Below, one piece after another: positions 1 to 64,000 of a stretch of 64,000 nucleotides of DNA. The stretch is taken from the NCBI GenBank assembly GCA_965153455.1, contig OZ234493.1, positions 17,350,213 to 17,414,212 on the forward strand. The letters are read 5' to 3'. The notes under the pieces were generated by a model. The model saw only the letters and a program-made list of their open reading frames with translations. It searched no databases and was not told the DNA's origin. The DNA comes from Sphagnum compactum (lineage: Eukaryota). A program made the position numbers and the translations under genes. The number at the start of each line of letters is the position of its first letter. Position 1 is the first letter of the stretch.

Positions 1-3000
1 TAGATGGGAATTTGGAAAAGTTTCTCAGAGTCCACAATTTTTTTATCTAAACAATCAAGGCTTTGATACTAGTGTTGCCCTGTTATTGGGGAATTTTTTT
101 AGAATAAATATGTTGGGTACTAATAGAGGGCACAATGACAGGCTATTTCAACCTACATGCCGAATCTCACTAGCAGCAACATTTATTTTGGAAAAAAAAA
201 AAGGTGAGTTAGAGTTGCGCAATAAGTCCAAGACCATATAATTCACAGGGCTCTTGTGAAAATACCCTCCAATCTCATTTGTATAGTTGAATCCATCAGA
301 GACATGTCTGTGGACATCAGCTGCAGAAGGCGTCCAGGTGGTGAAGAAGACTTGTGTATGCCAGTGATTTTGCAGCTGCTGCTGGCTTGTTTATCAGAGT
401 GCCATGTGGCATCATTTCAAACACTTCCAAAGTAAAGATTTATTTCTTTCGTCGCCTTTCTTTCACAGCACTTGAATGATTTTGTCATAATTACATGAAA
501 AATCCTTAGTTACGTCGACAGTAAAAATATTAATACCTGTCATAATATTGGGCGCTAGGCCTACCTCCACTCCAGGTCCCAGAAGGGACCAACTAGTTGT
601 TTCCAGCAACTACAAACACAGTGAATGATTGCTAGTCACAGTATGAGACTTGGAAAAAAAAAAACAGTACTGATTTGGGACAGTTCGACTATTTACAGGA
701 TCTTAACATACTGTTGTTCTCTAACGTTGTAGACCAAGCTGCCCAGAAAACTGAATACTACTTAGCCTACTACATGGGGGGGGGGGGGATAAACAAGGCA
801 CTAGCAGCAGCAGACATTGACATGGCATTTACATTGACATGGCATTATTTGTCTGAGGTACATAGGGTTCACTTTTCTTTACAAGTTCCTCAAATAGGTC
901 CAATGGGGGGAGGGCCCCCCAACATTTACTACCATTGTTACTGGCAACTGTCATTTGAGGTGGGCTGTAGCATTTTTACAAAATGGGTGGGCCTAGGTCT
1001 AGATATGGGTTATTTATTTATTTTCATTACAAAAAAGGTCCGAAAAATGGCTAAAAAATCACCCAAGTCACTCCTGCCCACCAAGGATGTTCATTGCTTG
1101 GTTAAACAGGAAAAAACATTTGTGCCATATAAAATTTCCCCCCCTTTTTTTTCATGGGCTTGAATGACCCAACACCCACCGGCGCACAAGCCACAAATCT
1201 TGTTTTAGGGTTCAAGGTGGACAAACTTTTCTCCTGGGGAAATTAAAGAACGGGTCGGAGAAAATGGATAAAACATAATTATCAAAGAGGTATATAATAT
1301 GGATTTGTATGGAAGAACTTTAGCCGTATCACAAAATTAATCAAGAATTATTTTTTAAAGTCTGCTTTATTGGACCCCTCAAATGTTTCGGGTATACATG
1401 TGGACCACCCAAGGATTTTTATTTTTTTGTCTGTTTATGTTTTGTGAATATATTTAATAGGGTATAAATATTTAATGTTGTGCAAGGACATATTTTGTTT
1501 TGGGATCGTAATCATTTGCATCTTTTTAGAGTAGGAGTATTGCAAGATTCCTGCCCACCAAGGATGTTCATTGCTTGATTAAACAGGAAAAAAAAATTCG
1601 TGCCATATAAAATTTCCCCCCTTTTATTTTCCTGGGCGTGAATGACCCAACACCCACCGGCGCAGCAGCCACAAATCTCGTTTTAGGATTCAGGGTGGAC
1701 GAACTTTTCTCCTGGGGAAATTAAAGAATAGCTCGCAGAAAATGGATAAAACAATGCTTATCAAATTGAAAACCTTTACCATCAAAGAGGTATATAATAT
1801 GGATTTGTATGGAGAACCTTGAGCCGTATCACAAAATGAATCAAGAATTGTTTATTGAAGTCCGCTTTATTGGACCCCTCAAATGTTTCGGATATACATG
1901 TGGACCACCCAAGGATTTTTTTTGGGTCTATTTATGTTTTGTGAATACATTTAACAGGGTATCAATATTTAATGTTGTGCAAGGAATATTATTGGCTACC
2001 TAATACAACTTATCATAAAAGTTTGGCCAGTGTCTTATAAACTTTTTTTTACCACAAAGTTTGGCCAATTTGGGACCATTTATTTTCCATGAAAAATCCT
2101 TCAAATAGGTTGAAATTTGAAACCATATATTTCAGGTGCAAAATTGGCAATAAAACAATTCCCAGGTTTTAGGGTTTAGGGTTTTGGCAAGTAGGTAGTA
2201 GTATGTACATTACTACACATACTGAGTAGGCCAATCACGTGGTTGCCCGAAAAAGAAACTAAAGAAATATAAAGCCTAAACCCCCCCTGTCGTGCCCCCC
2301 CCTCTTCCCTCTTCTACTTGCGAATGGTCGCCTTCTGTTATTTTTCGTCAAGCCTCACTCATTTTCGCCCTCTTCTTATTCGATTTTCCGTCGCTCGAAT
2401 CATTCATTTTGTTAAGATGTCTTTTTTTTTACCAGCGGTTAAAATCGTTGAACTTTTTCCCTCAGCGAACGAATGTAAACGCGGAGAGCCCAGAGTCCGC
2501 TTTGTGAGACCCCTCAAATTTTTGAAAAATACATGGGAACCCCTTAGGGATTCTTTTTGTCTGTTTATGTTTTACGAATATATTTAACCAGGTATAAATA
2601 TTTAATGTTGTGTAAAGAGGTATTTCGTTTGAAGATCGTCATCATTTGCATCATTTTTTAGCAGGAGTATTGTAGGACTCGTGCCCTCCAGAGGATGTTC
2701 ATTGCTTGATTGAATGGGAAAAGAAAATCGTGCCTTATGAAATTTCCCGGGTTTTTTTTTTTGTTTCCCAGGCTTGAATGACCCAACACCCACCACTGCC
2801 CCATCCACAAATCTTGCTTCAGGGTTTAGGGTTGACAAACTTTTCTCCCGGGGAAATTAATAAATAACTCGAAGAAAAGGGAGAAAATATGCTTGTAAAA
2901 TTAAAAATCTATACCATACAAGAGGTATTTAATATGAATTTGTCTGGAACAACCCAAGCCGCATCACAAAATAAATCAAGAAATGCTTTTTATGACGACC

Positions 3001-4220
3001 AAATAACAATTAGGGTTGTTTTGGGAAAAGGAACATTATGGCAACGCCGCAGGGCATATCTAACCAAATAATAACTAGGGTTGTTTTGGGAAAAGGAACA
3101 TTATGACAAGGCCGCAGGGCAATTTAAAGTATGTCATCGTGGCAAATCGCGGTTAATTTTAATTGGTAAATACCCCATGACATTTCTGGGAAACTACATT
3201 CGAATTTTCACACTTGCACAAAGTTTAATATATCACACATCCTTTTTGATCTATAAACATTCATTATAACAAAGCTTTGTTGGGATGGATGACGAATTAA
3301 ATGTTTATTAAACAATGAAAATAAGAATCGGATCTATTTCCCTCCAAATATACAAAAGATAAATTGGCCATGAATCATGCATGTCCGTAAATGTTATGTG
3401 ATGGCCCACAATTTTAACATAAACCCAACCCCCCCCCCCCAACCCCCCAAAAACACAATTCCATATGCTCCTCCATCCTCTCCCAATGGCCCTTGTAAGC
3501 CCTTAAGTTTCTTGTTATTTTTATATATAATGTTCTATAAAATTGTGTCAATGGTGACATTTTGATGGGTAGTCAAAAGCTAAATAGAATGCAAACGTAG
3601 CTATTAAAGTTGCACACAAAAACGTAAAATAATTCGAACCACACCATGTGAAGTTATACTATAGTGGAACATAGCGAAAAAATAGGAAGAGGAAGTCGAT
3701 TACCGAGCCACGGAGCGAGCTTCCATTTAAAAATTTGGTGGAGTGCTACCCTAAGCCCCAATTTGAACTTTAAAATTTTGCCATCGAAAGAAGTTTTTTT
3801 TAAAAGATTATAATGTGTGGTTTGACGTGATATAAGCCAAACATGATGTGTGATAGCCCCCCGGGGAAACGTTATACAGGATCGTACATTAAGGAACATG
3901 TAAAAATTTATAAAATATGCTTCATATATGGTGCACAGGACAGGCCAACCCTAAACACCTAAAACTGCGTTCAAAAGTTTCCCGGGCGTTATCAATGAAT
4001 ACAAGATTGTATCAAATCCACCACAAAGTAATTTACCTTTTCATAAAATTTATTAGATTTCATTTATGATGATAAATAATATATATGCATGGATGCAAAT
4101 AAAAGGCTGCGCAACGTGCTACGAAGGCCAAGTACATTTAATCATGTCATTTATCAATTCTTCCAAACATAATGAAATTGGAGTGGGGCGCAAAATAAAC
4201 ATACGGGGTTGGAGATTCAT
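1..4220 (+). repeat. Long direct repeat, copy 1 (near-identical to 59787-64000; true boundaries may lie outside the window)
   Basis: TAGATGGGAATTTGGAAAAG at position 1 recurs at 59787 and stays colinear to the window end, with scattered SNPs and homopolymer indels. The ORF track shows paired near-identical ORFs (2318/62099, 2602/62383, 3377/63159). Confidence 0.98.
1070..3000 (+). repeat. Three diverged copies of a ~480-bp unit inside the long repeat
   Basis: AGGATGTTCATTGCTTG...GAATGACCCAACACCCACC...CCACAAATCT recurs near 1073, 1550 and 2680, and again in copy 2. Confidence 0.85.
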
Positions 4221-12853: not shown

Positions 12854-13124
12854 GAAACTGGACGTTCGAGGGAGCGACTCACATAAACATTCACATTTCA
12901 CCGAGGTGGGAAAGAGCCAGCAACGAATCAAAGTTCTCGTTCAAGGTGAAAGTACCACGTCGTCAGGTCAAATGGTAGGCTGGGCAATCTCTGAATCGAT
13001 GCACCAAGAAGATGCGACTGGTGATCTAATTTCTCCGGCCCCAGCCAACACGACTTACTCCTGCGATGTGTGCGGTCCCTTCAGTTGCCATACCGGCAAG
13101 GATTCCTCCTTCGTCGAACCGAAC

Positions 13125-16100: not shown

Positions 16101-17020
16101 GATTACTGCCAGAATAATGCAAGAGAAATGCAGGATGCAGATTTTGTAGAGCTGTCTCTGCACATTTTTTTGTGGAGAGATTATGGTATACTTGTCCATA
16201 CTACATTTGTTTTTTCAAAAGCTCCGGCCTTTGACTTCTGCTTCTACCACCGACACTGAGTTTGGTTCGAGTTCTGCCTCTAGACTCAAGACTAAGTTCG
16301 GTTCGGGTTGTAGCTGCGGATCTTGTTTGGAACCCGGACTCGGATATCAGACTGCAGCTTGAATGAGGACACTAGTGATGTTTCGGATTGGGTAATGTAT
16401 CATGAGTGCTTGTCAACATCTTTATTGAGTCTTCGGATTGCTGCCAGAATAATGCAAGAGAAATGCAGGGTGCAGATTTTGTAAAGCTGTTTGTGGACAT
16501 TTTTTGTGAAGAGATTATGGTACACTTGTCCATACTACATTTGTTTTTTCGAAAGCTCCGGCCTTTTTCCTTCTGCTTCTAGAACGAACATTAAGTTTTG
16601 TTCGAGTTCTACTTCTAAACGCAAGAATAAGTTTGGTTCGGGTTGCAGTTGCGGATCTTGTTTTCAACCCGGATTTGGATATCAGACTGCAGCTTGAATG
16701 GGGACTCTACGGATGATTTGGATTCGCTAATGCATCATGAGTGCTTGTGAACATCTTTATTGAGTCTTCAGATTGCTGCCAGAATAATGCAGGAGAAATG
16801 CTGGATGAGGATTTTGTATAGCTATTTGTGGACATTCTTTTTGGAGAGGTTATGGTATATTTGTCCATACTACTTTTGTTTTTTCAAAAGCTCCGGCCTT
16901 TCACTTCTGCTTCTAGAACCAACACTGAGTTTGGCTCAAGTTATGCTTCGAGACTCAAGAGTAAATTTGGTTCGGGTTGGAGCTGCGGATTTTGTTTTGA
17001 ACCCGGATTCGGATATCGGA
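13125..17020 (+). repeat. Tandem satellite array, ~335-340-bp monomer, ~12 copies
   Basis: GGACATTTTT..GGAGAGATTATGGT starts near 13131, 13467, 13808, 14146, 14478, 14816, 15150, 15487, 15826, 16160, 16495 and 16829. This explains the repeated short ORFs in the track. Confidence 0.97.
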
Positions 17021-18087
17021 CTCGGAGAAGGTTGTTTGACTTCTCCCAGGGTTTACATTGATCTCATATCTTGGATATCATAATCGTATTGAAAGCACAA
17101 CAGTTTCAGAAAGTCACCGTTTATCCTCCTCCAACTTCGACCGAAGTTCTGGACACCTTGCTTTGGCAACACAAACAGAGATAGGTTTTGAGTATTCAGA
17201 GCATGCATAGTGTCTACATTTCAGCTGACTGCTTGTCTTTCTTGGAGTTTTCTTCTCGTGCTGCGAGCCTGGGAGGACGAGTTTCTCGGAATGGACGATG
17301 TGTTTTTCAGGACTTTTGTTCACAATAGTTGCAACGAGATTTGTTTCTCAGTTATGAGTGAGTGTTTCGACTACTTTGGAGTGGTCGGGTGCTCTTTTCG
17401 TACAACAATTGCTGGGGGTTGGTGCAGGTCGTTGGATTCGTTTATAGCTCTGAGCTATGTGCATCATGTGGATTGTGCTCACATCAATTCCTCCGAGAAG
17501 GTTGAAGACCCTTGTTCATGATCTGCAAGGTCATTTCTGCAACTACCGAGACAGCTGATAGAAGGACCGGTCTTAATTAGTCAACGGCCAGGAAGAAGAT
17601 TTGAAACCTGTATGTTATATGAACTAGGAAAAATGTGGATTTCTGAAAGTACCCAATTGTGCATGGATATGGCGGGTAAGTCAACTTACGGGGAAGGCAG
17701 AGGTCACATTTGCAGAGCGTTTCACGTCCGGTAATCAGCAACAGGCCATGGCAGCACCGCGACTAATTCACCGAATAGTCCCTCACAGTCCGACGTATTT
17801 ACCGGGTATGATAAAAATGATTACCATCATCGAACATGGGTTTGCATTTTTAGTGGTTTTGTATGGAGGCATCCCTTTCACCTTAAAGAGCCAAATCCCA
17901 GTGCATAAATTGTTGTTGTCGGTGCAAAAGGGGTTGATACATTCATAAGGCGAGAAGCATCAGAGCCTCTAATGTTGTGTTGCGATCGTATTACTTACGG
18001 GAAATTTGAAGCTCATTGAGATGCGCCGTAGATTTCTGGTGTACAATTGTGAGTCCTAAATTCTGGTTCCATCTTGCTCTTGCGCAG

Positions 18088-27479: not shown

Positions 27480-28917
27480 CTCCCCTCGATACCTTCCAAA
27501 CTCACTCGACACAGCAAAAGTGTTTGTTGTTTTATTCACCCCCAATGACGCGCTCCCAAGTCACGGGGTGAAACCCACTTGAGGGTTTCACAAAGTCAAG
27601 TTGCGGAAAGTTGAACTTGGTAGCACGCTGCCGGCTTCCAACTCTAGAAAGGGGTAGAGGGTCGAGTTGGGAGCCCAGGGATTAGACTAGGAAGAGGACT
27701 TAGTAGATCAAGCACGAATCTGCATCAAAACAAACCACCCACGTGGTTAGTTCACATTCCGGGACACCCTTTGGTGTTGGGACAAGCCACGGGCACTTGG
27801 ACACACAAGACTCACCACGGCCCGGACTCGGGAGTATGCCACCACCATACTCCCTATAGTATTCTCTGCACCTCTCCACGGAGGTGGCATCCAAATGGCA
27901 CAAATTCCCGGGACTCCCGAAATGGAGTCCCGAAATTGTCCCAAAACTGTCCCTACGGGACTCCCGGGACTTTGGACGGCCATAACTCCCGACTGCAGAG
28001 TTCGATCGCAACGAGGTCTGAAGCAAAGTTGTAGCCCTCGTCGAGATCTTTCCAACGCCATGTAGCACTCTCAATTCGAACGTCGGGAACAGGTCGATTC
28101 CTGACTTTTAGTGGTCGGGAGTCAAACTGCCAGTTTGACTCCCGGCCCTTCTTTTGCCCCTAACTTGGGCTGCAGATGTCCAAATGGCCAATGCGAGGCC
28201 ATTTTCGATATCTACGCTTCAAGACCTTTCCAACGACACCAAGAACACCCCAAGGCGAGGTGTTTTGCCCCTTGCTGTCGAGCTCTAAACATTCGGGAAT
28301 CCCGGAGGACTCCCAAACCTCACTTTTTCCAAGTGTTGGGCTTCACCCCCACACTTGGCCAAAGTAGGGTTGCGACACCCAATATTCCTCTCAGGAACAT
28401 TCTGTGTACTTGTTCTACTTGTTGCAACCCTTTCGCCCCTGTTCAACCTGTCCACACCTCGCATGCATGGCTCAGTATTGGGCGTACCAGTGAGTCGAGC
28501 AACTGGCACATTACTTCCGGATTTGTTCCTTGCTATTCGTTTTGTACTTGTTCCTTGCTATTCCTTCCCTGCATCTTGCAAACCCAAGAAAAGGATCGAA
28601 GGATAAAGAAATATATACTACGACAAATTGAAAAAAATAGGAAAAGAAAAAATGAATGATAAAAATTAGACAAATAAATAAAAATGAATGAATAAGTAAA
28701 ACCGAGAAACACGACAAAAAAACCAGAAATACTCCGATGGATACCTTCCAAACTCCCCCAACACAGCAAAAGTGCCTGTTGTTTTTTTGACCCCTGATGT
28801 TCCTCTCAGGAACATTATGTGTACTTGTTCTACTTGTTGGAAACCTTTCGCCCCTGTACAACCTGTCCACACCTCGCATGCATAGCTCAGTACTGGGCGT
28901 ACTGGTGAGTCAAACAT
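27480..28917 (-). mobile_element. Two copies of a LINE RT C-terminal fragment, the first interrupted by the solo LTR
   Basis: FDSPVRPVLSYACEVWTGC..QVEQVHIMFLRGTSGVKKTTGTFAVLGEFGRYP at 28735-28917; a matching copy at 28383-28500 plus 27480-27545. Confidence 0.8.
27546..28377 (-). mobile_element. Solo LTR (832 bp) with 5-bp target-site duplication, inserted in a LINE remnant
   Basis: TG...CA termini (TGACGCGC...TTGCGACA), flanked by CCCAA on both sides (27541-27545 and 28378-28382). Removing it rejoins the LINE peptide MFLRGILGVNKTT. The strand call is tentative. Confidence 0.85.
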
Positions 28918-31300: not shown

Positions 31301-32586
31301 CTCACTTCCTCGCTCGCTCTCGAGGCCGTGCATATTCGTTAGGCAGGCAGCTGCGCCATCGCCATCTGTGCAGCAGCAGCACTTCCTCACTCGCTCTCAA
31401 GGCCGTGCATATTCGTCGGGCAGGCAGCTGCGCCATCGTCGTCTGTGCAGCAGCAGCAAGCTCCAGACAACTTGCTGGGTCTTTGTCTGACATTTTGGTG
31501 GGCATAATATTCTGGGGAGTGCTTTCAGCGCTTTACAACAAACACAATAGTTGCTCAAAGGTTCTTGCACGCTGCAACGTTGTTGTAGGCTGTTGAAATC
31601 ATTCGCAGTAAAGGCAGGTATGTTTTCTCTTTTGCTCTGTGTTTGTGTTTCCCTCTTGCTTGTCGGCTCCTTTTTTTTTTGCCCTCTTCCGGAGCAACCC
31701 CGGAGGAGTATTTTCTGCTCGATGTTATGTTCCGAGTGCATCTAGAGAGTGCATCTAGAGGGTGTTCAGGAGCCACGAGCTCACGAGTAGCTCTAGCCGC
31801 TGAACGGTCGTGGTCAAGATAGTTCACACTTATCGTGGTATCACTCTTACTGACTGCTTCAACAAGCAGTCCAAACCAACATGAAACAGCTGATTAAAAC
31901 AGCTAGTCAAGATAGTTCACACTCTGAAAGAGGGAATCTGGACCCGTCAGAACGCTCGCCGTCCATCACAACCAGGACTATGTCACTGGCAGGACGTTCA
32001 TCTGGCGAGGAGCCGCCGACCGAAACTGGACAAATCCATCGCAGCAATCCCGCTCGGGGCGGCGAGCAATTTCTCGTCGTCCGAGGTGTGAGTCTTGTCT
32101 ATGTTAGAGAACACAGATCAAATGTACGCACTATAGAACAGATCCTGTTCAAGTACAGTCGTGGAGATAATGCCGCTGAACGATCGTGGTCAAGACAGTT
32201 CACACTTATCGTGGTATCGCTCTTACTGACTGCTTCAACAAGTAGTCTGAACCAACATGAAACAGCTGATTAAAACCTTTATCTATCCTGCTCCTCATCC
32301 ACTGTAATTGTCATCTAAACTTACTTCGGAGAGTTGTGGCATTAGGACCCTTGCTGACTTGTGACAAACCCGAATGTGCAAGAATTCAGGGAGGAGAAAG
32401 GGCTCGGTCACCCTCCTTCTCAGGAGCGGTCAGTTGAATTTAACAACCAGACTTATGTTAGCATACCTTGGTAAGCATGTGGAAAGCAGCTCAGATTTTG
32501 TTTTCCAGAAACTGTACGTTCAGATTATTAGAAGGTTTTCTGCAAACATCTATATTTGTGGTGATAGAAGTTGTCATATCCTGCAG

Positions 32587-33119
32587 GATTTCAACCAGAA
32601 ATTGAAGGCGCCATTCTCACTGAAGAGTTCCAGTTCAAGACGGCCTCTACGTGTACAACTTACGAGGGGTGGCGAGCAGTTGCAAGGTAATGAGACCTAA
32701 GCAGTGCCAACTTACTGTAAGATTGTGCAAACCGAGTGCTTATTTGTGTGCTGTGCAAAGTATTTCTGAGTTAGTGCTTGGAATGTCGCTAACTGCCAGG
32801 TTACATTATTCAGAGCAAGTGCAATGCTTCCAATAGGACTTCAGTAACGTGTTTTGTTACTTTTCACAGGAGGAGCTTATACCAGCTGTAGCTCAGCATT
32901 TTGCTGCTCAGGTTTGGCCTCTACGTCCAATTTAACTTGTTTGTGCCTTTTGTGTGTGGTGGGAAGTTAAATACTGGCTTACTATACTTCTTCTGGTTAC
33001 GATAACGCAGCTAACTGGTCATATGTCAGGTCGTGGAGGACAATGAGACACTGTTGTCCTTCGAATTCTTTCTGAAGAAGCGGCATTTGCAAGCTCCACA
33101 ATATCCCAGCATCAGGTAG
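32587..33119 (+). pseudogene. SAP30-like (Sin3-binding domain) histone deacetylase complex subunit, 3' exons, degenerate
   Basis: Spliced ..YNLRGVASSCK|EELIPAVAQHFAAQ (32870-32911)|VVEDNETLLSFEFFLKKRHL..stop (33030-33119), with GT-AG junctions. Resembles the SAP30 Sin3-binding motif KEELxxAVxxHFxxQxVxExExLxxF. Confidence 0.65.
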
Positions 33120-33428
33120 CTGCCCGCACTGTAGCCAAATGATAAACTGCATGCGATGATAATAACCAGTTTAGGACTATGAGACTCTAGAAACTTACTT
33201 GCCTCCGCCAAAATCTTTGAAATGGGTTTGGTGAGGGAGATGTGTGCCTTTGCAACCAATCCTCCTCCTTGTGGCTGATGTTTGATGTATTATTGCTGGC
33301 TGCTGCAGGGAGATCGAATTCTCGGCATTGGGGACACTGCACTGTTTCAGGCAGGAAATGCGCCTCCCTTCATTCAAATATCCTGAAAAGTGCCTGTTGA
33401 GAAAGAGGATAAACTGAAATACAAGGTC

Positions 33429-35100
33429 ATGGCACCTCCGAGTAGAGCGAGCTGTCATTATTGTGAGCTTTGCGACAGGACTCTCGTCCCCGGCGCCAAC
33501 CTCGAGGAGCACAAGGTCGGAGCCATCCATCGAGGCTTGATGGAGGCGTCCGGGAAGATGACGAGACGTCAACTTCAAGTGTTCCGAGAGGAGTTGAAGG
33601 TCGGTCGTCGCAAACAAAAGTTGCCGGCTAAACGGGCCATCCTGGAGGCTCTACGAGAGCCGGTGGAACCCAGCAATTGGTGCGTTCCTTTTTTTCTCTC
33701 AATTGTCTTTTATCGGATTTTTTTTCTTTTCATAGAGCCTTTTTTATTTTTTGTTTGTCCTTTTTAATTTTTTTTTTTGTCTCCTGCCTCATGACTGGGT
33801 TTGTGATCAAAAATTATATCCACCTACTTTTTCCCCTTCGTGCGTAGGAACACGGGCTTGAAACAGACCGTGCATTGGGGGCCTCTCGAGAGCGCTTGGA
33901 TCCTTACCCATTTTCGACGGAAAGGGATCGATATCCCGGACGTTGTGAAAGACGTTGTTGGGCTGGGCTGTGAGACTACGCAGGAGCTGAGGAGGAAAGA
34001 ACAAAACACAACCTTGGACGGTTTCCGAGAGCTCTTGACGGATTGTGTCTTGATTTATGAAGGGGCCGTGGTTGCCATCTTGTTGCACGAGTTGGTTCCG
34101 TCCTATCAAGCCGACGAGTATTTCGCTGCGATGGCCCACATGTGGGAGTTTGGCGGACACATCACCAGGACTTGTTCCCCTGAGACCAGGATGGCCATGT
34201 TTGGACACAGATTCTGCTACAACGACTCTGTCCCTGCCAGGTGAGCTTTTAAACCTTCCATGTACCATCCCCATTTTCCTGGTTTTTCCCCTCGGACGCA
34301 CATTTTGATTTTCCATCTTTTTTTAGGTTCTTCCATAAGCAGCGGAGCAAGGAATCCCTTCTCGCGCACACGGCAGAAGACTTGGAGGCCTACGGCAATG
34401 CTTGGGCCGACAAGTTTGTCGACACCAATTTACGCCCCCACTTGGCGTCTTGGCTTCAGGAACTTGAAGATGTCTATCCCAAAGAGCTCCCTAAACTCAG
34501 GGCGCGTCTGGGAAAGACGCCATTCACTGCCATGGGGGTCACCAGGAATTATGTGTCTGCAGCACACACGGATCGAGACGTCTTGCATTCCGTGATTTCT
34601 TGGTTTATCCGAGGTATTCTTTACTTTTCATCTGTTTTCTTTATTTTTCCCTTTTATCCATTTTGTTTCAGGTTCATATTGTGCTTGTGTGATCCTTTCC
34701 AGGGGACGTGGCGGATGTCGGGAAATTTGTTTTCCCTGGTTTTAGCCTATTTTTCCGACCTCGATCGGGGACCGTGCTCCTTCTGAACTCTTCCCGGTTG
34801 AGCCACTACACGGCGGCAGTCCTAAATCCTGCGCATTGCCAATATGGGTGTGCCTTGTATGTGAGACGGTCCACTCAGACCACTTATGTTAGGAGGCAAG
34901 ATCGCATAGAGCAGATTGGCGATATGTTAGATTCCGCCATGCGTGAGGCGAATGCGGCACGTCGACGAGAGATTATTGCCCCCCTTCCAATTAATTCTGA
35001 AAATGCTCCGCCTCGGAGCGAGGGTAGGAGACAACTTGATGGCGTATTACGTATCAAATTCTCTCCTGTCGGCATCGAGCGATGTGAAGGGGAGGACTAG
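33429..35100 (+). CDS. 4-exon gene (33429-33679, 33848-34240, 34327-34613, 34703-35100; 442 aa): N-terminal C2H2 zinc finger plus TET/JBP-like 2OG-Fe(II) dioxygenase domain
   Basis: Three GT-AG introns join in frame with no stops (1329 nt). Zinc finger CELCDRTL..EEHKVGAIH. Double-stranded beta-helix motifs FTAMGVTRNYVSAAHTDRD (HxD), GKFVFPG..FRPRSGTVLLLNSSRLSHYT (distal His), then YGCALY. Confidence 0.8.
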
Positions 35101-36881
35101 GTCTCTCTCATAATTACCAGATTTAGCATTGTTACACCTTGCACCAGGGATCTAATCACAGTCGGTCAATCATGGACATGTGGATCTTTTTGAGCTTTTT
35201 GAACCCCACTTAGTCCTTGCTTGTTGTTTATCTTTTGTTTCTTATATTATGGTCTTTTCTTCTTTTCTCCTTTCTCTTTTTTGTATTTCATTGGCAAATT
35301 TTATTGCTTAATTGGCTTTTAAAATTGTGATCATGAAGATTTTTTGATTATTGTGAGAGTTATCTGGATTTTGAAGAAAAAGACTTAGTTGTGCCCAATA
35401 CATCTGGTCACATTGACCTGCAACGGGTGAGGTCACTCGCTTTTCAAAGTCTAGTAAATGCATAGTTTGTTGCGTCTTATCTTTGGTTTGTGTCGTGATG
35501 GCATCCTGAATTCCAGTGTTCTCTTAGCGAGTGAAATTTTCTCCATCCTCTCTTGGTGGATTAACAAGATCCGATCAGCCCTTGGATTGCTTGGTCCCCA
35601 CTGGATGGATGCATTCTGTTCTCTCGATGGTCCTACATGCTCTCCTGAGTTTCATTTGTCACGGTTAACCAAGGTCTAAAACCCAAGGACGCACTGTTTT
35701 TTGTCCACAGTCATTCATCCGTCACGGTGGACCGGTGGGTGCTCTGATGCTGATTTTGGCTACATAATCCTACTTTTATGAAGATCTTATTTTTCCAAGT
35801 TTTTAATTGGTGTGAAGTTTGGAAATGAGTTGCAATTTTCTGGTTGGGGGCTTTTGGGGAAAAAATTCAAAGAACTTCTCTTGAAAAAGTAAGGAATTAA
35901 AAGCTTAGTTTGCCATATTTAAACTCTTTGCTCTTATGCGAATTGAAAAAGTTGTAGAAGCATTTTGGAGAAAAAAATCTTAGGTTCCTACTTATCCGAT
36001 AGCTAATGTTGGTGGAATCCTCCGAGATGATGGTTGCTGATGTGGTCCCATCACAAAATTGGAAAAAGAAAAATAATAATAGTGCTCCCAACCTAGTAAC
36101 CGCCTCAAAAAATATCATCTCTTTTTGCCTTCCAAAAAACCGAAGAAAACATTTAATACATGGTAAATTCAATAACACCGTGACCAAAAGTTTGTACTCC
36201 TCCATCGTAATTGACAAACTTGACGAACTTGAATAGAATGCGAAGACCCAAAAAAAAAAAAAACCCGAATATTTAGGCTGTCTAGCCCTGCAAGGTGAAC
36301 TCAGCTCTATTTCCTTACTTATTCTGGTGATTTTTTTGAAAAAATTCCCAAGAACCTTTCAGAAGGTCGACAGCCCATTTCAGATTTTGCAATAATGCAA
36401 AATTTTACATCATGAAAAAAATGCTAATTTATAGGATTTTATATATTTCTTTAGAATAAAACTTGGATCCCCCAAATCAGGCTTGGGAGAACTGCAATAA
36501 TGTTTTTTTTTTTCAATTTTCGAAGCTTGCATCTACTGTGAACACCTCGTATAGGATTTGTGAATAAATTGTAACCTTTTCGTAAAATAAAATAAAACCT
36601 TTTTGTAGGTTGGCTAACTATACCCCGCTTCAATAATAAACATCTGGTTATGTAATCTAACAACTACCCCCACCCCTTTCCCCCAAAACAATTTTTTTTT
36701 AAAAATCCACAAACACCCTCCTCTTGAACCTAGAACCCAAAACCTAAAAAATATATATTTAAATCCAAATGTTAAAAAACGACCGCCGCCGCCGCCCAAG
36801 TCCAAAAGCCCTTTTTCCCCAGACCAATAAAATAAAATATTATAAAAAAACAGTGTGGGGTTTCTGGGCTTTGTGGAGTAG

Positions 36882-37185: not shown

Positions 37186-38270
37186 GTGGATTGGGAGCTC
37201 AAGGATTGGGAATCTATAACCCTCGCGTACCCAACTTCACATGAGAATTGTTGTAGCAGCAATAGCTTGCCAGAGACAGTAATGGTTTCTGCTGCAGTGG
37301 TGAAGTCGGAGCCACTAGCAGAAGTGGAGGAAAGTGAGGAGGAGGAAGAGGAGGTGGTTCATCAAGCTCCTGAGCAGCAGTAGCAGCTCTTCTCAAGCTT
37401 GGGCTTAAACTCGGCAGACGTAGCAACGGCAGCAGCACCACGGAGAAGAACGAGAAGGAGAAAGAAGTTTCGCAAGGATCTCGTTCAACAACAACTCCTA
37501 CTGCCGCCATTGCTCCTCCTCCGGCAGCAGTAGCAGTAGCAGCAGGTTCTTCTTCTTCTTCACCTCCTTCCACCAAGAAGCAGCGGCTGACGTCTCCCTC
37601 TTCAACGACAGCAGGAGGAGGAGGAAACCAAAACCCTGCTCCTCCTTGTCGTTGTCAAGTGGAAGGATGCACAGCTAACCTAAGCTCTGCCAAAGACTAT
37701 CACCGAAGACACAAAGTTTGTGAGATGCATTCCAAAGCTTCCAAAGCCATAGCTGCCGGATGTGAACAACGCTTCTGTCAACAATGCTCCCGGTTAGCTT
37801 CCCATACCCCACCCATACCCATACATCAACAGCAATAGCAGCAGCTACAGTAGTATTGCTCCGGAGGCAGTCGACTGACTGACGGACAGATTCACTCACT
37901 CACTCCCTTGCATGTTGTGGGTCTTTTGTCTTTCTCTGTTGTCTGCAGGTTTCATGTGTTGACAGGGTTTGATGAAATCAAGCACAGCTGTCGAAGAAGA
38001 CTTGCAGGACACAATGAACGGCGGCACAAACCTCACCCCGAGTCTTCTTCTGCTGCTGCAGCTGCGGCTGCGATCGACCTCTCTTTCAACTGTCGAATCT
38101 CTTCACCAATGCGCAGCACCGATGCCTTCCATATCCACGGAACAGCTGCAGATTCTCTCACTCTTGATGGTACAGCAGCAGAGATACACCTAACCCTGTA
38201 CCCAACCCTTTGCATTCCCACCAGCATACCAACCTCACTGGCTCACATCCTTGTACCTCTGAATGCTACT
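37186..38270 (+). pseudogene. SPL: SBP-box (SQUAMOSA promoter-binding-like) transcription factor, frameshifted and 3'-truncated
   Basis: N-terminus (GTG)DWELKDWE; frameshift near 37370; [13 protein letters not shown] domain [65 protein letters not shown] with an intron at 37793-37948. Confidence 0.92.
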
Positions 38271-38342
38271 ATCAGGCACCCATTTGTTGTATCCACAAGA
38301 ATGATTTGAGCATTTCTTTGTCACCGAATTACAGAATTATCT

Positions 38343-40698
38343 TTGTACCAAAAAACTGCATCTGTCACTGTAACAGAAATTGCCTATAGTGTAAAAGAGG
38401 GGAAGATCAAAGGAGATGTGAGGCGGGAGGTTAAGGTTGTGACTTCATGTGGGGATGAATTTGAAGGTGATGCGGTTTTAGTCACTGTTCCATTGGGCTG
38501 TTTGAAGGCAGAAACCATCCGCTTTGAACCCCAACTTCCTGACTGGAAACTTGCCTCCATCGAGCGTCTTGGGTTTGGACTTCTGAATAAAGTTGTCATG
38601 GAGTTTACTGTCCCATGCTGGGATGAAACTGTTGACTATTTTGGTGCAGCTGCTGAGTGCACAGAATTGAGAGGTCGATGCTTTATGTTTTGGAATTTGA
38701 AGAGAACCGGTGGTGCTCCGATTTTGTTAGCCCTTGTGGTTGGAAAAGCAGCATATGAGGTTGAGCATCAAGAGAGTTCTGATCTTATCGAGCACGCCCT
38801 TATCATATTGAGGAAGCTCTTTGGGGAGACTGCAGTTCCCAACCCAATAGCATCTGTTGTAACCAATTGGGGCTTAGATCCCTTCAGTCGAGGAGCCTAC
38901 TCTTATGTGGCTTTGGGGGCATTGGGTGAGGATTATGATATTCTTGCGAGGCCTGTGGATAACTGTGTTTTCTTTGCTGGGGAGGCAACTTGTAAGCTAA
39001 ACCCAGATACAATTGGGGGTGCCATGATGAGTGGGCTTCGAGAGGCAGTTAGGATTGTGGACATCCTTGAGAATCGTGGACATACAATTGCCGAGGCTGA
39101 AGCTTTAGCAGCTGCTCAGCGCCAGTCAGATAGTGAGAGAAATGAGGTACAACACTTAATGACAAGAAAATCTCTCATCTTTTGTGCCTCTTTTTTTGAC
39201 TGCAATGTCAGCTTTTGAAGTTGAAATAAGTCACTGTTTGTATAGGGTAGGGTGCAACTAGTGCATTATCATAGCAGGTGTGGTGAAAACTGTCCAATTA
39301 TTGGTGTATGCCACCAATTAGTTTATGCAGTGTAAATAGCATCTCTGTGAGGTGTAGGATGAAGTTGTATGAATGCTTCAGGTTCGGGATATGGTCAAAA
39401 GGCTAGCAGCAGGTGAGCTTTCAAATGTACTAAGGGGGGACACAGTTCTGGGTGAGGGTGAACAAGGCCCACTGAGCCGTGCAGATTTAGTGAAAGACAT
39501 GTTTGGGAATGCCAAGACCACAACTGGACGTCTTTTGCTGATCAAAGAGATGCTTCAATTGCCTGAAACTTCTCTGAAGGGCTTTGCTGGCACAAAGTCT
39601 GGTCTCGCTGTCCTCAATAACTGGATTTTGGTATGTTTTTGTTTAAGGATCACAAAATGAGCTTTTCTTTTTCTGACTGGGCCCTGGCTGGCAACTCTTC
39701 ATGCGTGGGCAATTATAAATGTGTATCATAGTAACTGTTTTCTAACATATGGGTTTACATTTTGTTCTCCTGGGTGCAAGCTCACATCAGTTCTTGTCGA
39801 TAGTTTTCTGGTGGATTGGGTGTGAGGATTCTCCCATGTCCATGTCAGGAAACTCCTATGCCGAACAGCCCCTAAATCAACAACTTGGAATCCTCTTGCT
39901 TCTGCTCTATAATGTGACACGGAGTGGCATGGGTGAGCTTCACAGGACTCGATGGGGAAAGATGGAACACAGCTTCTCCGGCACTGTGTGCGCCTGCTTC
40001 TTGTTGTGGCCACTGACCTGCTTTCTATCCGACAATCTGGTACCCATCACCTATGGCCATGTGGTTATGGGCTTTCCTTCCTGAGTTTTGGTCTGTTGGC
40101 TTTCCTTCCAAGTCCTGTGTGGTTTCTGTGCTGTCCATTGACCCACTCTGGAGTAGTGAATAATTTTCACTTCCTACCAAGATCTTTCTTCAAGCTCAGA
40201 AGCTGCAAAGAATTATGTATTATACTTCGCTTATTCCTTGTATCTTGGGCAGAATTAATTAAACCATTCTTTGTTCTCCATGAGAGCTCAGGGCTTGCCC
40301 TTTCAGAAACAGGATGTTGGCACAAAATTATGTGCAATGGTTACATCATCTGCAGACATCCATTATACTGAAAATCTGCAATTGATCTCCTGTATGTTGC
40401 AGGTGTTGGGCGAGCGGTGAAGGAAAAGGTTTGTGTTCACACAAGCCGTGATATATGTGCAGTTGCAGGGCAGTTGGTCAAACTTTGGATTGAAGTTTTC
40501 CGTAAAGAGAAAGCAACCCATGGTTTGATCAAACCCGCCAAGAAGCCAGCCAGTAGCTCACCAAATGCCACAGTTGGCACTGCCAAGGCAAGCTCAAAAG
40601 ACACTCAAAAGACACCTACCATCGGAGATTCAAAGACCTGGCCTTATACCCATTTAGCATCACCATCTAGTGACTCCCTTTCTGCTGGTCAGAGCAAG
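38343..40698 (+). pseudogene. LDL3: Lysine-specific histone demethylase LDL3-like internal fragment (exons ~38343-39146, 39382-39630, 39946-40039, 40403-40698)
   Basis: C-terminal half of the amine oxidase domain (DAVLVTVPLGCLKA, LGFGLLNKV, WGLDPFSRGAYSY, FFAGEATC..TIGGAMMSGLREA), followed by the LDL3-type region DSMGKDGTQLLRHCVRLL..VKEKVCVHTSRDI. No SWIRM domain or N-terminal FAD-binding motif. Confidence 0.9.
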
Positions 40699-47627: not shown

Positions 47628-48339
47628 TAGTAATCGTTCATTTTTGTCGGCATGGTGAGAAAAAAAAGCTTGTGATAGTTTTGTAGTTAATATTTTTGCA
47701 AAGGATTGATTGCAGTGTAGATACTTGATGCAAAAGCCATGCAAAGTTCAAAAAAATGAAGATTGTTAATTGTTGTAAGAATTTCGAAAAAAATACTTGT
47801 AGTGGCTTTGCAGTCAGTTTTTGTTTTGTTTTACATGCATTAAGTGTAATTCTTTAGTGGAAAAACATGTTGTTGTAAAAGGTCCTAGAACATAAATTTA
47901 ACCTTTATTACTCTTAAAATTATTCACCAATTTTTATTTATCCTTTAAAGTTAAGTTTCTTTTTTTGTGTGCTAGTTTTTAAACAATATATATGTATATT
48001 AATGAACTATACCCTAGATGCCATTTGTCAAGTCCATTTTTAGGTTGATTATCAAGTGTCAGATAATAAGTTTACCATCGAAAAACACATATCTACTAAC
48101 CATACGTTTACATATTTTATCGATACCATTCACAACTTATTGTCCCATCATGTTGGTCTCCGAAACCCATTCAAATCAAATTGTTTTCAAGCATTATTCT
48201 CTGAACAAAAAAACATCATAAAAAATAAAGATCTCACCATAAGATGTCAAGAAATCAAAACTTGTCCAACAACCCTAAATTCTACTCCTATTCCATTTTC
48301 CAAAGTTAGACAATTCCCTTCTTTTTGTCTGGCAACCAT

Positions 48340-51025
48340 TACAACCGACAAGTGAACACAATAAGTTATTTATGAAATTAAGAATAAACAAATAATCTGA
48401 CATTCATAGACATTCACAGACATTCACATGGCATTTACAAGTCCACTAGAATTTGAGGAATCCATCTCACTTGAGCATTGATTTAGTGTGATTAAATTAC
48501 ATGCATCGAGGTGAGGAGAAGAGAGTTCGCCAACAATTTGGTGACCAACGAGCCGACGGAATTACCAATGAGCACCGGGAAAAATCCAGCCCCCATCAAC
48601 ATTGCCTAACCAAACAGCTCAAAAACAATGTTCATGGGGCCTCCCCTAATAGCCTCAGAAATTATGCATGTGAGTGAGCTTTTGTTAAAATAGATTTCTA
48701 GATTATTATTCCTTACTAGTGGGTGCCTGTGGCCGATGGCCACCTTGAAGTCCCCCGTGGGTGCCCATGACCTTGGGCCACTGTGAAGTTTTATACGTTT
48801 TATTTTTTCTTATCTTTTACTCTTTATTTGGCCCCTACCCTGCCCGCCCTTTTATTTTTTCTTATCTTTTACTCTTTATTTGGCCCCTGCCCTGCCCGCC
48901 CTTTTATTTTTCCTTATCTTTTACTCTTTATTTGGCCCCTGCCTTGCCCGCCCTTTTATTTTTCCTTATCTTTTATTCTTTATTTGGCCCCTGCCCTTCC
49001 CGCACGGCCCTGCCCCCTGCCCTGCAAGACAGACGGACAGACGGACCCTGCCCTGCCCCCTGCCCCACCCTGCCCTGTCTGGCCGCCCGTTTTTCCGAAT
49101 CCCGTTTTCCGAATTTAGTTTTCCGAATCCCGTTTTTCGAATCCAGTTTTCCGCCGGTCCATTAAAACGCGGAACCATCGTCGGACGCACAGACACTGTT
49201 GTAATTATATACAAAAAAACTCTACTGTCCGCCTAGGACAGTCGCCATTTAATGTAAATTGATGGATGAAGGGATGGACGGATGGACGATGGGACGGACG
49301 GATGGATGGAAAGGATCATTTCATCTCGTCGTCTTTTATTATATATTATTCCTTATAAAAATTTCTTTTCCGGCAAATGTGACGACCAACCAATAAATGC
49401 AATAACATAATTATGAAATTAAGAACAAGACATTCACAGACATTCACATGGCATTTACAGGTCCGACAAAATTCCAGGAATCCATTTTAGTAGAGCATTG
49501 ATTTAGTGTGACTAAATTACATGCATCGAGGTTAACAGAAGAGAGCTTGCCAACAATTCGGTGACCAATCAGCCGACCGAATCACCAACGAGCACTGAGT
49601 AGAACCCGGCCCCCACAAACATTGCCTAACCAAACAGCTCAAAAACAATGTTCATGGGGCCTCCCCGAATAACCTCACAGATTGTGCATGTAATCCAGCT
49701 CCTCTTGAAATGGATTCCTAGAATTAATCCTTATAAAGAAAAGATCATCCGACGACCATGACAACCAACCAGTGAATGCAATAAAATAACCATGAGATTG
49801 AGAACAAACCTGGAATCATACGCACACAGCCATTCCCATGGCATTTACAGGTCCAACAAAATTCCAGGAATCCATTTCAGTAGAGCATCAATTTAGTGTG
49901 ACTAAATTACATGCATCGAGGTCAGCAGAAGAGAGCTCGCCAACAATTCGGTGACCAATCAGCCGACCGAATCACCAACGAGCACCGAGTAGAACCCGGC
50001 CCCCACAAACATTGCCTAACCAAACAGCTCAAAAACAATGTTCATGAGGCCTCCCCGAATAACTTCACAGATTGAGCATGTAATCCAGCTCCTCTTGAAA
50101 TGGATTCCTAGAATTAATCCTTATAAAAAAAAGATCATCCGACGACCATGACAACCATTCAATGAATGCAATAAGATAACCATGAGATTGAGAACAAACC
50201 TGGAATCATACGCACACACGCATTCCCATGGCATTTACAAGTCCAACAAAATTCCAGGAATCCATTTCAGCAGAGCATCGATTTAGTGTGACTAAATTAC
50301 ATGCATCGAGGCCAGCAGAAGAGAGCTCGCCAACAATTCGGTGACCAATCAGCCGACCGAATCACCAACGAGCACCGAGTAGAACCCGGCCCCCACAAAC
50401 ATTGCCTAACCAAACAGCTCAAAAACAATGTTCATGGGGCCTCCCCGAATAACTTCACAAATTGTGCATGTAATCCAGCTCCTCTTGAAATGGATTCCTA
50501 GAATTAATCCTTATAAAAAAAAGATCATCCGACGACCATGACAACCAACCAGTGAATGCAATAAGATAACCATGAGATTGAGAACCAACCTGGAATCATA
50601 CGCACACACGCATTCCCATGGCATTTACAAGTCCAACAAAATTCCAGGAATCCATTTTAGCAGAGCATCGATTTAGTGTGACTAAATTACATGCATCGAG
50701 GTCAGCAGAAGAGAGCTCGCCAACAATTCAGTGACCAATCAGCCGACCGAATCATCAACGAGCACCAGGTAGAACCCGGCCTCCACAAACATTGCCTAAC
50801 CAAACAGCTCAAAAACAATGTTCATGGGGCCTCCCCTAATAACCTCACAGATTGTGCATGTAATCCAGCTTTTCTTGAAATGGATTCCTAAAATTAATCC
50901 TTATAAGAAAAAGATTTTTCCGACAACCATGACAAGGAACCAGCAAATGCAATAAGATAACTATGAGATTAAGAACAAACCAAGAATCATGTGCACACAA
51001 ACATTCACATAGCATTTACAAGCAT
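48340..51025 (+). repeat. Tandem satellite, 390-bp monomer: 4 contiguous copies plus a diverged Helitron-interrupted copy
   Basis: ATGCATCGAG at 48501, 49521, 49911, 50301 and 50691; exact 390-bp spacing for the last four. Confidence 0.95.
48716..49345 (-). mobile_element. Non-autonomous Helitron-like element inserted into a satellite monomer
   Basis: The minus strand ends in hairpin GTGGCC-ATC-GGCCAC + AGGCACCCA + CTAG|T. The 5' region ATATAATAAAAGACGACGAGATGA..CCATCCATCCGTCC resembles the 20730 element. Four internal ~52-bp repeats at 48795-48995. It splits the monomer at CCTTA|TAAA. Confidence 0.7.
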
Positions 51026-62700: not shown

Positions 62701-64000
62701 AAGAGGTATTTGATATGAATTTGTCTGGAACAACCCAAGCCGCATCACAAAATAAATCAAGAAATGCTTTTTATGACGACCAAATAACAATGAGGGTTGT
62801 TTTGGGAAAAGGAACATTATGGCAACGCCGCAGGGCATATCTAACCAAATAATAACTAGGGTTGTTTTGGGAAAAGGAACATTATGACAAGGCCGCAGGG
62901 CATATCTAAAGTATGTCATCGTGGCAAATCGCGGTTAATTTTAATTGGTAAATACCCCATGACATTTTTGGGAAACTACATTAGAGTTTTCACGCTTGCA
63001 CAAAGTTTAATATATCACACATCCTTTTTGATCTATAAACATTCATTATAACAAAGCTTTGTTGGGATGGATGACGAATTAAATGTTTATTAAACAATGA
63101 AAATAAGAATCGGATCTATTTCCCTCCAAATATACAAAAGATAAATTGGCCATGAATCATGCATGTCCGTAAATGTTATGTGATGGCCCACAATTTTAAC
63201 ATAAACCCAACCCCCCCCCCCAACCCCCCAAAAACACAATTTCCATATGCTCCTCCATCCTCTCCCAATGGCCCTTGTAAGCCCTTAAGTTTCTTGTTAT
63301 TTTTATATATAATGTTCTATAAAATTGTGTCAATGGCGACATTTTGATGGGTAGTCAAAAGTTAAATAGAATGCAAACGTAACTATTAAAGTTGCACACA
63401 AAAACGTAAAATAATTCGAACCACACCATGTGAAGTTATACTATAGTGGAGCATAGCGAAAAAATAGGAAGAGGAAGTCGATTACCGAGCCACGGAGCGA
63501 GCTTCCATTTAAAAATTTGGTGGAGTGCTACCCTAAGCCCCAATTTGAACTTTAAAATTTTGCCATCGAAAGAAGTTTTTTTTTAAAAATTATAATGTGT
63601 GGTTTGACGTGATATAAGCCAAACATGATGTGTGATAGCCCCCCGGGGAAACGTTATACGGGATCGTACCTTAAGGAACATGTAAAAATTTATAAAATAT
63701 GCTTCATATATGGTGCACAGGACAGGCCAACCCTAAACACCTAAAACTGCGTTCAAGAGTTTCCCGGGCGTTATCAATGAATACAGGATTGTATCAAATC
63801 CACCACAAAGTAATTTACCTTTTCATAAAATTTATTAGATTTCATTTATGATGATAAATAATATATATGCATGGATGGAAATAAAAGGCTGCGCAACGTG
63901 CTACGAAGGCCAAGTACATTTAATCATGTCATTTATCAATTCTTCCAAACATAATGAAATTGGAGTGGGGCGCAGAATAAACTTATGGGGTTGGAGATTC
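59787..64000 (+). repeat. Long direct repeat, copy 2 (period about 59,786 bp)
   Basis: Colinear near-identity to 1-4220. Confidence 0.98.

Follow-up and report, generated by a model that had tools for sequence, protein, structure and literature searches.

Does a moss carry an enzyme that modifies 5-methylcytosine (5mC)? To our knowledge, land plants are generally said to lack enzymes of this type, and the question is raised by a gene in a 64,000-nucleotide stretch of Sphagnum compactum DNA (contig OZ234493.1, positions 17,350,213 to 17,414,212 of the forward strand; this whole stretch is called the window below). An initial annotation had described the gene as an intact zinc-finger and TET/JBP-like dioxygenase gene carried by a mobile element. 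What we find is a nuclear gene, intact and from a Sphagnum moss, which encodes a 442-amino-acid protein with a U1/matrin-type C2H2 finger and an Fe(II) dioxygenase domain of the TET/JBP superfamily. Our favoured reading, to which we give a probability of about 0.62, is that this is an intact Sphagnum TET/JBP gene resembling that of Chlamydomonas CMD1, that it is the live, or the most recently live, member of a mostly dead family, and that its product modifies 5mC. We infer the probable substrate, co-substrate, product and role of the enzyme, which would be to counter cytosine methylation, from its sequence.

The gene consists of four exons separated by three GT..AG introns (Table 1). When the window bases of the exons are joined they give a coding sequence (CDS) of 1329 nucleotides, that is 442 codons and a TAG stop, with zero internal stops; its G+C content is 54%, compared with 31–41% in the introns and 42.7% in the window. 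The list of stop-to-stop open reading frames (ORFs) breaks the gene into four frames, just as the initial annotation had remarked. The 442-residue product that it had assembled from four exons agrees with the intron borders, with the open frame and with an annotated protein of another species, S. tenellum CAM6074878.1 (here P0002; its record reads “unnamed protein product”), which is also 442 amino acids long and is colinear with the window product (413 of 442 residues identical, 0 gaps). The motifs that it had quoted are likewise present in the spliced product, NYVSAAHTD at residue 289, GKFVFP at 317, GTVLLLNSSRLSHYT at 333 and HCQYGCALY at 355. Just two of the 29 differences between the window protein and P0002 fall within residues 275–365, and every active-site residue discussed below is identical in the two; P0002 (93% identical) served as the query for the protein-level family searches and for the structure model. 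Exon 4, which also encodes a long C-terminal helix and a poorly conserved tail, found three proteins when used alone as a query, and two of these are named Sphagnum records.

To which known enzymes is the protein related? Tet_JBP is the sole catalytic-domain match of the full protein in Pfam (expectation value, E, of 5.6e-4; 19.6 bits), and exon 3 matches this family by itself at E 0.069. The best single-sequence match among the sequences of solved structures is Chlamydomonas CMD1 (E 0.016). An exhaustive phmmer search gave 167 relatives at E≤1e-3, mostly exon-sized fragments, and the family alignment and profile used throughout were made from 13 longer ones. This profile matches CMD1 among the PDB sequences at E 5.1e-16 (61.9 bits, over CMD1 residues of about 282–431), and the second PDB sequence that it finds is NgTET1, at E 0.66. 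As the Pfam score lies below the cut-off of that family, membership in TET/JBP rests on the match of the profile to CMD1 and on the fold. The AlphaFold2 model of P0002, made from a 46-row alignment, has a predicted local distance difference test score (pLDDT) of 84.6 and a predicted template modelling score (pTM) of 0.76. Foldseek places five CMD1 entries on top of its matches, followed by NgTET1, TET2 and CcTet (E 1e-12 to 2e-9), with FTO, ALKBH5 and prolyl hydroxylases (P4H) at 4e-6 or worse. VIA-align, which is independent of Foldseek, gives CMD1 a Z score of 21.4 (277 residues aligned, root-mean-square deviation 3.6), NgTET1 19.9, TET2 19.6 and CcTet 15.8, and the next structures, after a gap, are ALKBH3 (13.7) and AlkB (12.4). 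Matches in the ESM Atlas have scores of ≤0.78 and are all of TET/JBP type; we take them as leads only.

The initial annotation had suggested such a structural comparison and had named AlkB and the prolyl hydroxylases as the families whose closer resemblance would count against it. Because CMD1, NgTET1, TET2 and CcTet all outscore those families, AlkB or a prolyl hydroxylase as the best structural match is ruled out, and the assignment of a TET/JBP fold and a C2H2 finger stands on both the profile and the fold ranks. Judged from its sequence and its predicted structure, the gene product is a zinc-finger and TET/JBP-fold protein whose closest characterised relative is CMD1.

Does the active site also resemble that of CMD1? 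We mapped residues from HMMER alignments and took their roles from the part of the CMD1 structure paper that was available to us (PMC7854593). The window’s own protein carries all of the mapped active-site residues. H295, D297 and H345 correspond to the CMD1 iron ligands H345, D347 and H397. Three further residues correspond to those with which CMD1 reads its base: D299 aligns in the profile alignment with D350, the reader of cytosine N4, Y363 with F416, which stacks on the base, and R365 with R418, the reader of cytosine O2. W307 corresponds to CMD1 W358, which, according to the same part of that paper, sits where the side chain of the arginine that binds 2-oxoglutarate (2OG) lies in TET enzymes, and so clashes with 2OG and blocks it sterically; NgTET1 has Tyr in this column of the family profile alignment. 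In the ascorbate pocket T287 (T337 of CMD1), T347 (T399), I305 (I356) and F319 (F371) are kept. Across the 13-member alignment R205, D297, D299 and F319 are invariant, and the conservation of H295, W307 and H345 is 90% or more. All 11 members that cover position 365 have R or K there, and an aromatic residue at 363 is not general across the family.

The initial annotation had also noticed that a Gln appears where TET/JBP enzymes usually have the arginine that binds 2OG. This observation is correct, because the column in question holds NgTET1 R289, the canonical ligand of the 2OG C5-carboxylate (R1896 in TET2, according to the available part of PMC7854593); the residue of the window protein is Q357, and that of CMD1 is R410. 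The substitution is typical of the family, with Q in eight of the 11 members that cover the column and K, R and V in one each. Since Gln357 stands at the place of the canonical 2OG arginine and Trp307 is kept, the co-substrate site is unlike that of a canonical TET enzyme. On these alignments the pocket looks like a cytosine-reading, iron-binding site of TET type in which the co-substrate half is non-canonical and nearer to that of CMD1 than to that of TET2.

These same alignments bear on the possibility that the protein is a canonical 2OG-dependent TET-type 5mC hydroxylase, which would produce 5-hydroxymethyl-, 5-formyl- and 5-carboxylcytosine and would hold the C5-carboxylate of 2OG with a residue other than the usual arginine. 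The prevalence of Gln at the arginine site and the conservation of the Trp that blocks 2OG argue against such an enzyme, as do the fact that the family alignment has no conserved basic residue beyond R205 and R/K365 and the profile match to CMD1, which is 50 bits above that to NgTET1. On the other side, the fold matches TET2 and NgTET1 nearly as well as it does CMD1 (Z 19.6 and 19.9 vs 21.4), the HxD...H triad and R205 are conserved, three of the CMD1 ascorbate contacts are lost, and one family member has Arg and another Lys at the Gln position. We think a canonical hydroxylase rather unlikely.

What, then, would a CMD1-like enzyme do in a moss? Enzymes of the CMD1 type use ascorbate to modify 5mC, and their product is 5-glyceryl-methylcytosine; we know of this DNA modification only from Chlamydomonas. 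By analogy, the finger or the basic linker that follows it would take the Sphagnum enzyme to nucleic acid, and a 5mC would flip into the active site, where Asp299, Arg365 and Tyr363 would recognise it. The iron bound to His295, Asp297 and His345 would activate O2, and the 5-methyl group would then be modified. Our best single guess for the chemistry is a CMD1-type reaction in which ascorbate would be the co-substrate and the adduct would be like 5-glyceryl-methylcytosine; our second guess would be plain hydroxylation of 5mC, with 2OG bound in some other way. Such an enzyme would modify 5mC in nucleic acid and so oppose cytosine methylation, its co-substrate most likely being ascorbate or some molecule other than 2OG.

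The spacing of the finger residues, together with several weak matches, suggests that the finger is of the U1/matrin/JAZ class: exon 1 of the window gene matches zf-C2H2_jaz in Pfam at E 0.041, zf-met (3.8e-4) and zf-C2H2_jaz (4.3e-4) are each matched in one of the 13 family members, and the ZMAT2 finger is weakly matched among the sequences of solved structures (E 0.33). All of these finger matches fall under the Pfam cut-offs. The same order of finger and TET domain is found in three distant relatives from metagenome/Logan records (P0033, P0060 and P0079; 23–30% identity), which were called as single uninterrupted ORFs. The first of these, P0033, is rich in Lys, Asn and Ile, and the contigs that carry members of its cluster reach 477 kb in length; a scan of viral_contigs with this single protein gave no relative. 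Because zf-C2H2_jaz and zf-met are C2H2 families that bind double-stranded RNA, ZMAT2 is a spliceosomal protein and the architecture recurs in these three relatives, one might suppose that the finger guides the enzyme to RNA or to RNA:DNA hybrids, where it would act on 5mC in RNA or on the DNA strand of R-loops. We hold this to be very improbable, since every one of the finger matches is below its cut-off, the aligned base contacts are those that CMD1 uses on a 5mC flipped out of double-stranded DNA, and a gene model of the S. jensenii type (below) does without the finger altogether.

Is the window gene alive? Relatives at 35–93% identity are present in S. tenellum, S. jensenii, S. compactum, S. 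fallax, S. troendelagicum and S. balticum, and one distant relative comes from the chlorophyte Hariotina. These organism names were drawn from 30 proteins that were looked up and from 29 profile hits, among which no other land plant is named, most of the hits having no name. A second lineage, at 44% identity, is intact in both S. tenellum (435 amino acids) and S. jensenii (427 amino acids); the recorded length of the contig that carries the S. tenellum protein, 23,414,089 nucleotides, equals that of the contig of P0002. A scan of JGI metagenome contigs gave 27 loci, of which about 17 are distinct (<97% identity), with eight of the distinct loci on contigs that have one common record prefix. 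These loci are 83–95% identical to the window in nucleotide sequence, introns included. All 13 loci that span the whole gene without a large deletion are broken by 1–10 in-frame stops together with frame-breaking indels or lost splice sites, and just two loci are defect-free, both of them partial (L002 and L008). In the 14 decayed copies C>T and G>A together make up 68–89% of the changes, measured against the family majority, with 27–47% of these changes at CpG; for the window copy and its two closest relatives the corresponding figure is 39–50%. Where duplicates are silenced, deamination of their methylated cytosines would be expected to leave such a pattern, which the lineage of the window copy has escaped. 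The copies that bear this footprint of methylation-driven decay belong to a gene whose own product probably acts on methylcytosine.

Constraint on the window copy was measured as the ratio of nonsynonymous to synonymous change (pN/pS) relative to the partial, defect-free L008, which is its closest copy (205 codons in one run, 204 in the run that separated core from tail). The catalytic core has 6 nonsynonymous and 8 synonymous changes, which gives a ratio of 0.24 (p 0.009); for the C-terminal tail the ratio is 1.07. In our favoured reading the window gene is the live, or the most recently live, member of a multi-copy Sphagnum family in which most others are pseudogenes decayed through methylation. 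The contrary reading is that the window gene is itself a recently dead or never-expressed copy, with a frame that is open by chance or with its catalysis lost. Such a copy would find company in the many pseudogenes of the family, and it would agree with the lack of RNA support, with the neutral tail and with the odd S. jensenii models of close copies, which are 254 amino acids long and have a frame-shifted exon 1. It is nevertheless quite improbable in our view, given 442 codons without a stop or indel and six intact splice sites where each full-length sister copy has 1–10 stops, the gap-free colinearity with the S. tenellum protein, a constrained catalytic core with all catalytic residues present, and the absence of the C>T decay signature from the window copy.

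The 5' end of the gene can be read in a second way. Three exon-like pieces with GT..AG borders lie upstream of the start codon (Table 1) and are in frame with exon 2, so that the finger exon is skipped. The resulting model has 483 amino acids and no internal stop, and 439 residues in 485 columns are identical to S. jensenii CAN5950877.1 (P0174), including 104 of the N-terminal 125 amino acids; the new 5' flank of the window is also present in S. jensenii gene models. The upstream pieces could reflect the use of an alternative promoter or first exon, or else an artefact of annotation. A short duplication in this region (31800–31900 and 32160–32270, about 360 nucleotides from start to start) repeats the start of the upstream exon-like piece (“ATGAAACAGCTGATTAAAAC...”).

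Some RNA reads fall on this upstream region. In a run of polyadenylated RNA (X9), about 12% of whose reads were examined at a threshold of 93%, the relatives present being 90–95% alike, 16 reads of a related organism map to positions 33307–33400, all of them upstream of the ATG, with a break at the AG acceptor (33307/8). As we read them, the loose ends of these reads behind 33374 are similar to the window bases that follow the proposed donor at 33389, and the 30-nucleotide consensus upstream of the reads is not in the window at ≤3 mismatches. These reads give hints, no more, of a spliced 5' leader in a relative. The splicing of the four exons, for which the initial annotation had looked to RNA, is not confirmed by these data, as there are no polyadenylated reads on the CDS and no splice joints; expression is neither shown nor excluded by them.

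Several points weigh against the reading of this gene as an intact, CMD1-like modifier of 5mC. First, the family assignment is thin in Pfam: the gathering cut-off of Tet_JBP (PF12851) is 34.9 bits and is not reached by the 19.6-bit match, and just 4 of the 13 family members match it at E≤0.01 (best 8e-5). Second, the co-substrate pocket departs from that of CMD1. Three of the CMD1 ascorbate contacts are altered (S335 to G285, V342 to S292 and S414 to A361), and two others, R244 and H249, lie outside every alignment that we obtained. The pair R205-F206 resembles R244-F245 of CMD1 by motif only, and that R205 is the equivalent of R244 is a guess; it stays unaligned because exon 2 alone gave chance matches only when compared with the PDB sequences (a kainate receptor, E 0.03). 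CMD1 moreover keeps R410, and the Sphagnum site is therefore no copy of that of CMD1. Third, the structure model is that of the 93%-identical orthologue and not of the window protein, and the residue map comes from the HMMER sequence alignments. Fourth, the ratio of pN to pS relative to the decayed copies is 0.25–0.6, and this is no clean evidence of selection since the transition bias inflates synonymous change. Fifth, the alternative 5' model without the finger is equally open. Finally, there are zero reads on the CDS in the examined part of the polyadenylated run, although such reads may have dropped below the 93% threshold because the relatives in the run are 90–95% alike. The metatranscriptome runs X1 and X2 contain one contig of 151 and one of 156 nucleotides inside exons 2 and 4, with no splice joints, and contigs from run X5 are DNA-like, since they continue through intron 2.

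Is the gene the cargo of a mobile element, as the initial annotation had supposed? The stretch that the dispersed copies have in common with the window ends sharply on its 5' side. The similarity stops at exactly 33416 in 15 of the 27 loci and at 33415 in one, and in none does it reach further upstream; on the 3' side the limits are at about 35004 (four loci), 35116/35123 (five) and 35186 (six). The other copies share an additional 0.1–2.1 kb upstream among themselves which the window does not have, and the lineage of the window copy has therefore evidently acquired a new 5' flank. None of the six inverted-repeat pairs flanks the gene closely with its two arms; the contigs are short, and the limits of the copies vary. 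Two groups of dead copies adjoin the same CRAL/TRIO (Sec14-type) host gene over 2.5–2.8 kb at 88–91% identity, as orthologous or homoeologous host loci would show.

Within the window the first 4218 nucleotides recur at the right end, and the TET-like gene, which is present in a single copy in the window, consequently lies once in a repeated unit of about 59.8 kb; the window holds one such unit and the beginning of the next. A stretch of 64 kb is too short to separate two explanations of this direct repeat, namely tandem segmental duplication and the long terminal repeats of a larger entity. The large helicase ORF in the unit had been labelled a tyrosine recombinase-helicase; Pfam does not reproduce this label, as no recombinase domain is found in the first 1000 residues of the ORF at E≤0.1. 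Nor is the proposed linkage of the TET-like gene to this helicase seen: among the 27 TET-like loci, only some of which have flanks of 5 kb or more, none has a relative of the helicase ORF in its flanks. Pfam found no transposase in 20 window ORFs (10 + 10) or in 10 ORFs from the flanks of related loci; as each of these ORFs has at least 100 amino acids, a transposase that is split or decayed could have escaped notice. Pieces of an SBP-domain gene and of a flavin amine oxidase gene also lie in the unit, downstream of the TET-like gene (Table 1).

What remains of the element-borne description is that the gene belongs to a dispersed, multi-copy family that has decayed by C>T change and behaves like a repeat; a transposase, linkage to the helicase and shared termini were not found with it, and some copies have host-gene neighbours. 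This is repeat-like behaviour with no identified vehicle, and it can be accounted for equally well by transposition and by segmental or dispersed duplication with later silencing. That the gene is carried by a transposon or by the ~60-kb helicase unit as an anti-silencing factor, in the way that fungal DNA transposons carry TET/JBP genes, would be in keeping with a family dispersed over 27 loci (about 17 of them distinct, eight on contigs with one record prefix), with 13 of 13 full-length copies dead and 68–89% of changes being C>T or G>A, with the position of the window copy inside the repeated unit, and with the precedent itself (PMC12730594, from the part of it available to us). We judge it unlikely all the same. 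In addition to the missing transposase, recombinase and helicase relatives, the copy limits vary upstream and fall at three 3' ends, unlike the termini of an element, two groups of copies keep the CRAL/TRIO neighbour, and the unit contains gene pieces as a segmental duplication would. An anti-silencing role is something that we only infer.

Other repeats of the window are listed in Table 1. The 390-bp repeat is also present in locus L015, where it lies 3.4 kb downstream of a dead TET-like copy. In four of the 27 loci (L001, L009, L010 and L025) another window repeat, of about 0.8 kb (27543–28380), lies in either orientation within about 1 kb to 2.5 kb of the TET-like copy; either this repeat is very common in general or it often neighbours the family.

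Table 1. Positions of the TET-like gene and of other features in the 64,000-nucleotide window.
Feature	Position	Strand	Description
Exon 1	33429..33679	+	Start codon and U1/matrin-type C2H2 finger (C12-x2-C15-x12-H28-x5-H34), then basic helical linker
Intron 1	33680..33847	+	168 nt, GT..AG, 33% G+C
Exon 2	33848..34240	+	N-terminal portion of the dioxygenase fold with family-invariant Arg205 (G-H-R-F); model strands 119–205
Intron 2	34241..34326	+	86 nt, GT..AG
Exon 3	34327..34613	+	Helical insert and first half of the double-stranded beta-helix; T287, N289, H295-x-D297-x-D299, W307
Intron 3	34614..34702	+	89 nt, GT..AG
Exon 4	34703..35100	+	Second half of the beta-helix (F319, P330, G333, H345, T347, Q357, Y363, R365), TAG stop
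Stretch common to dispersed copies	33416..35186	+	83–95% nucleotide identity; begins 13 nt upstream of the start codon
Upstream exon-like pieces	31881-32087, 33030-33115, 33309-33389	+	GT..AG, in frame with exon 2, finger exon skipped
Long direct repeat, left copy	1..4218		98.93% identity to the right copy over 4220 columns (37 mismatches, 5 gaps)
Long direct repeat, right copy	59787-64000		
Helicase ORF	5992-10785	+	1597 amino acids, uninterrupted; OrsD, C2H2, DEAD, Helicase_C; in a stretch of 56–58% G+C
SBP-domain ORF piece	37374-37838	+	First 48 of 75 profile positions; 2–4 kb downstream of the TET-like gene, inside the unit
Flavin amine oxidase ORF piece	38310-39218	+	C-terminal half; 2–4 kb downstream of the TET-like gene, inside the unit
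Satellite array	13069-17022		About 336-bp units x 12
Satellite array	48322-51022		About 390-bp units x 5, with a 52-bp sub-repeat at 48798-49055

Oxidised 5mC has been reported repeatedly in plant DNA, with no known enzyme (PMC13638503), and our literature search, which did not extend to supplements, found no paper on a moss or other land-plant homologue of TET or CMD1. A moss family of intact CMD1-like genes, which have so far been just “unnamed protein product” entries, is a concrete candidate for 5mC modification in plants. It is possible, though we would not presume it, that functional enzymes of the CMD1 type persist in Sphagnum and turn 5mC into a bulky adduct such as 5-glyceryl-methylcytosine with the help of ascorbate or, given Gln357, of a different co-substrate that is not 2OG, and that the expansion and decay of the family record an arms race with the methylation that silences the repeats carrying it. 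Were this true, a DNA modification known only from Chlamydomonas would exist in embryophytes. The co-substrate site, a natural variant in which Arg is replaced by Gln and the Trp of CMD1 is kept, could also help to explain how enzymes of this fold switch between 2OG and ascorbate. Sphagnum is ecologically important, and genomes and transformation-capable relatives exist, so that the question is directly testable.

How does the Sphagnum protein compare with known systems? The kinetoplastid thymine hydroxylases JBP1 and JBP2 belong to the same superfamily (Pfam Tet_JBP); no JBP chain is among the fold matches listed, by which a similarity is not excluded. In contrast to the JBP enzymes, the Sphagnum protein has an invariant Asp299 that aligns with CMD1 D350. 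Because D350 reads cytosine N4 and disfavours thymine (PMC7854593, in the part available), a substrate of the cytosine type is more likely for it than thymine. The fungal TET/JBP genes encoded by transposons (KDZ, hAT, Harbinger, EnSpm, Plavaka and Helitron carriers), for which the available part of Kojima 2025 (PMC12730594) proposes an anti-silencing role, resemble the moss family in their lineage-specific expansion, their many decayed copies and their repeat-rich surroundings. They differ in that no transposase, terminal repeats or constant ends were found beside the moss copies, some of which have host-gene neighbours, and in that the host here is a plant.

With the canonical TET enzymes (human TET2, NgTET1 and Coprinopsis CcTet) the Sphagnum protein has in common a double-stranded beta-helix with TET-type elaborations and the HxD...H triad. 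It is unlike them in having Gln in place of the arginine that binds the C5-carboxylate of 2OG and no Cys-rich or CXXC domain, and the match of its family profile to NgTET1 is at E 0.66. Differences from Chlamydomonas reinhardtii CMD1 (PDB 7CY4–7CY8) are also considerable: identity is about 14–15% over the fold, Gln stands at R410, the ascorbate contacts at G285, S292 and A361 are changed, the HxDxxD motif has a one-residue deletion, and the Sphagnum protein carries a C2H2 finger at its N terminus and is much smaller than the CMD1 construct whose structure was solved, a chain with a fused maltodextrin-binding protein. CMD1 is nevertheless its best match in sequence, profile and fold. The two have the same iron triad, and the 5mC contacts of CMD1 (D350, F416 and R418), its 2OG-blocking W358 and its ascorbate-pocket residues T337, I356, F371 and T399 all have counterparts in the moss protein; both proteins, finally, are of the green lineage.

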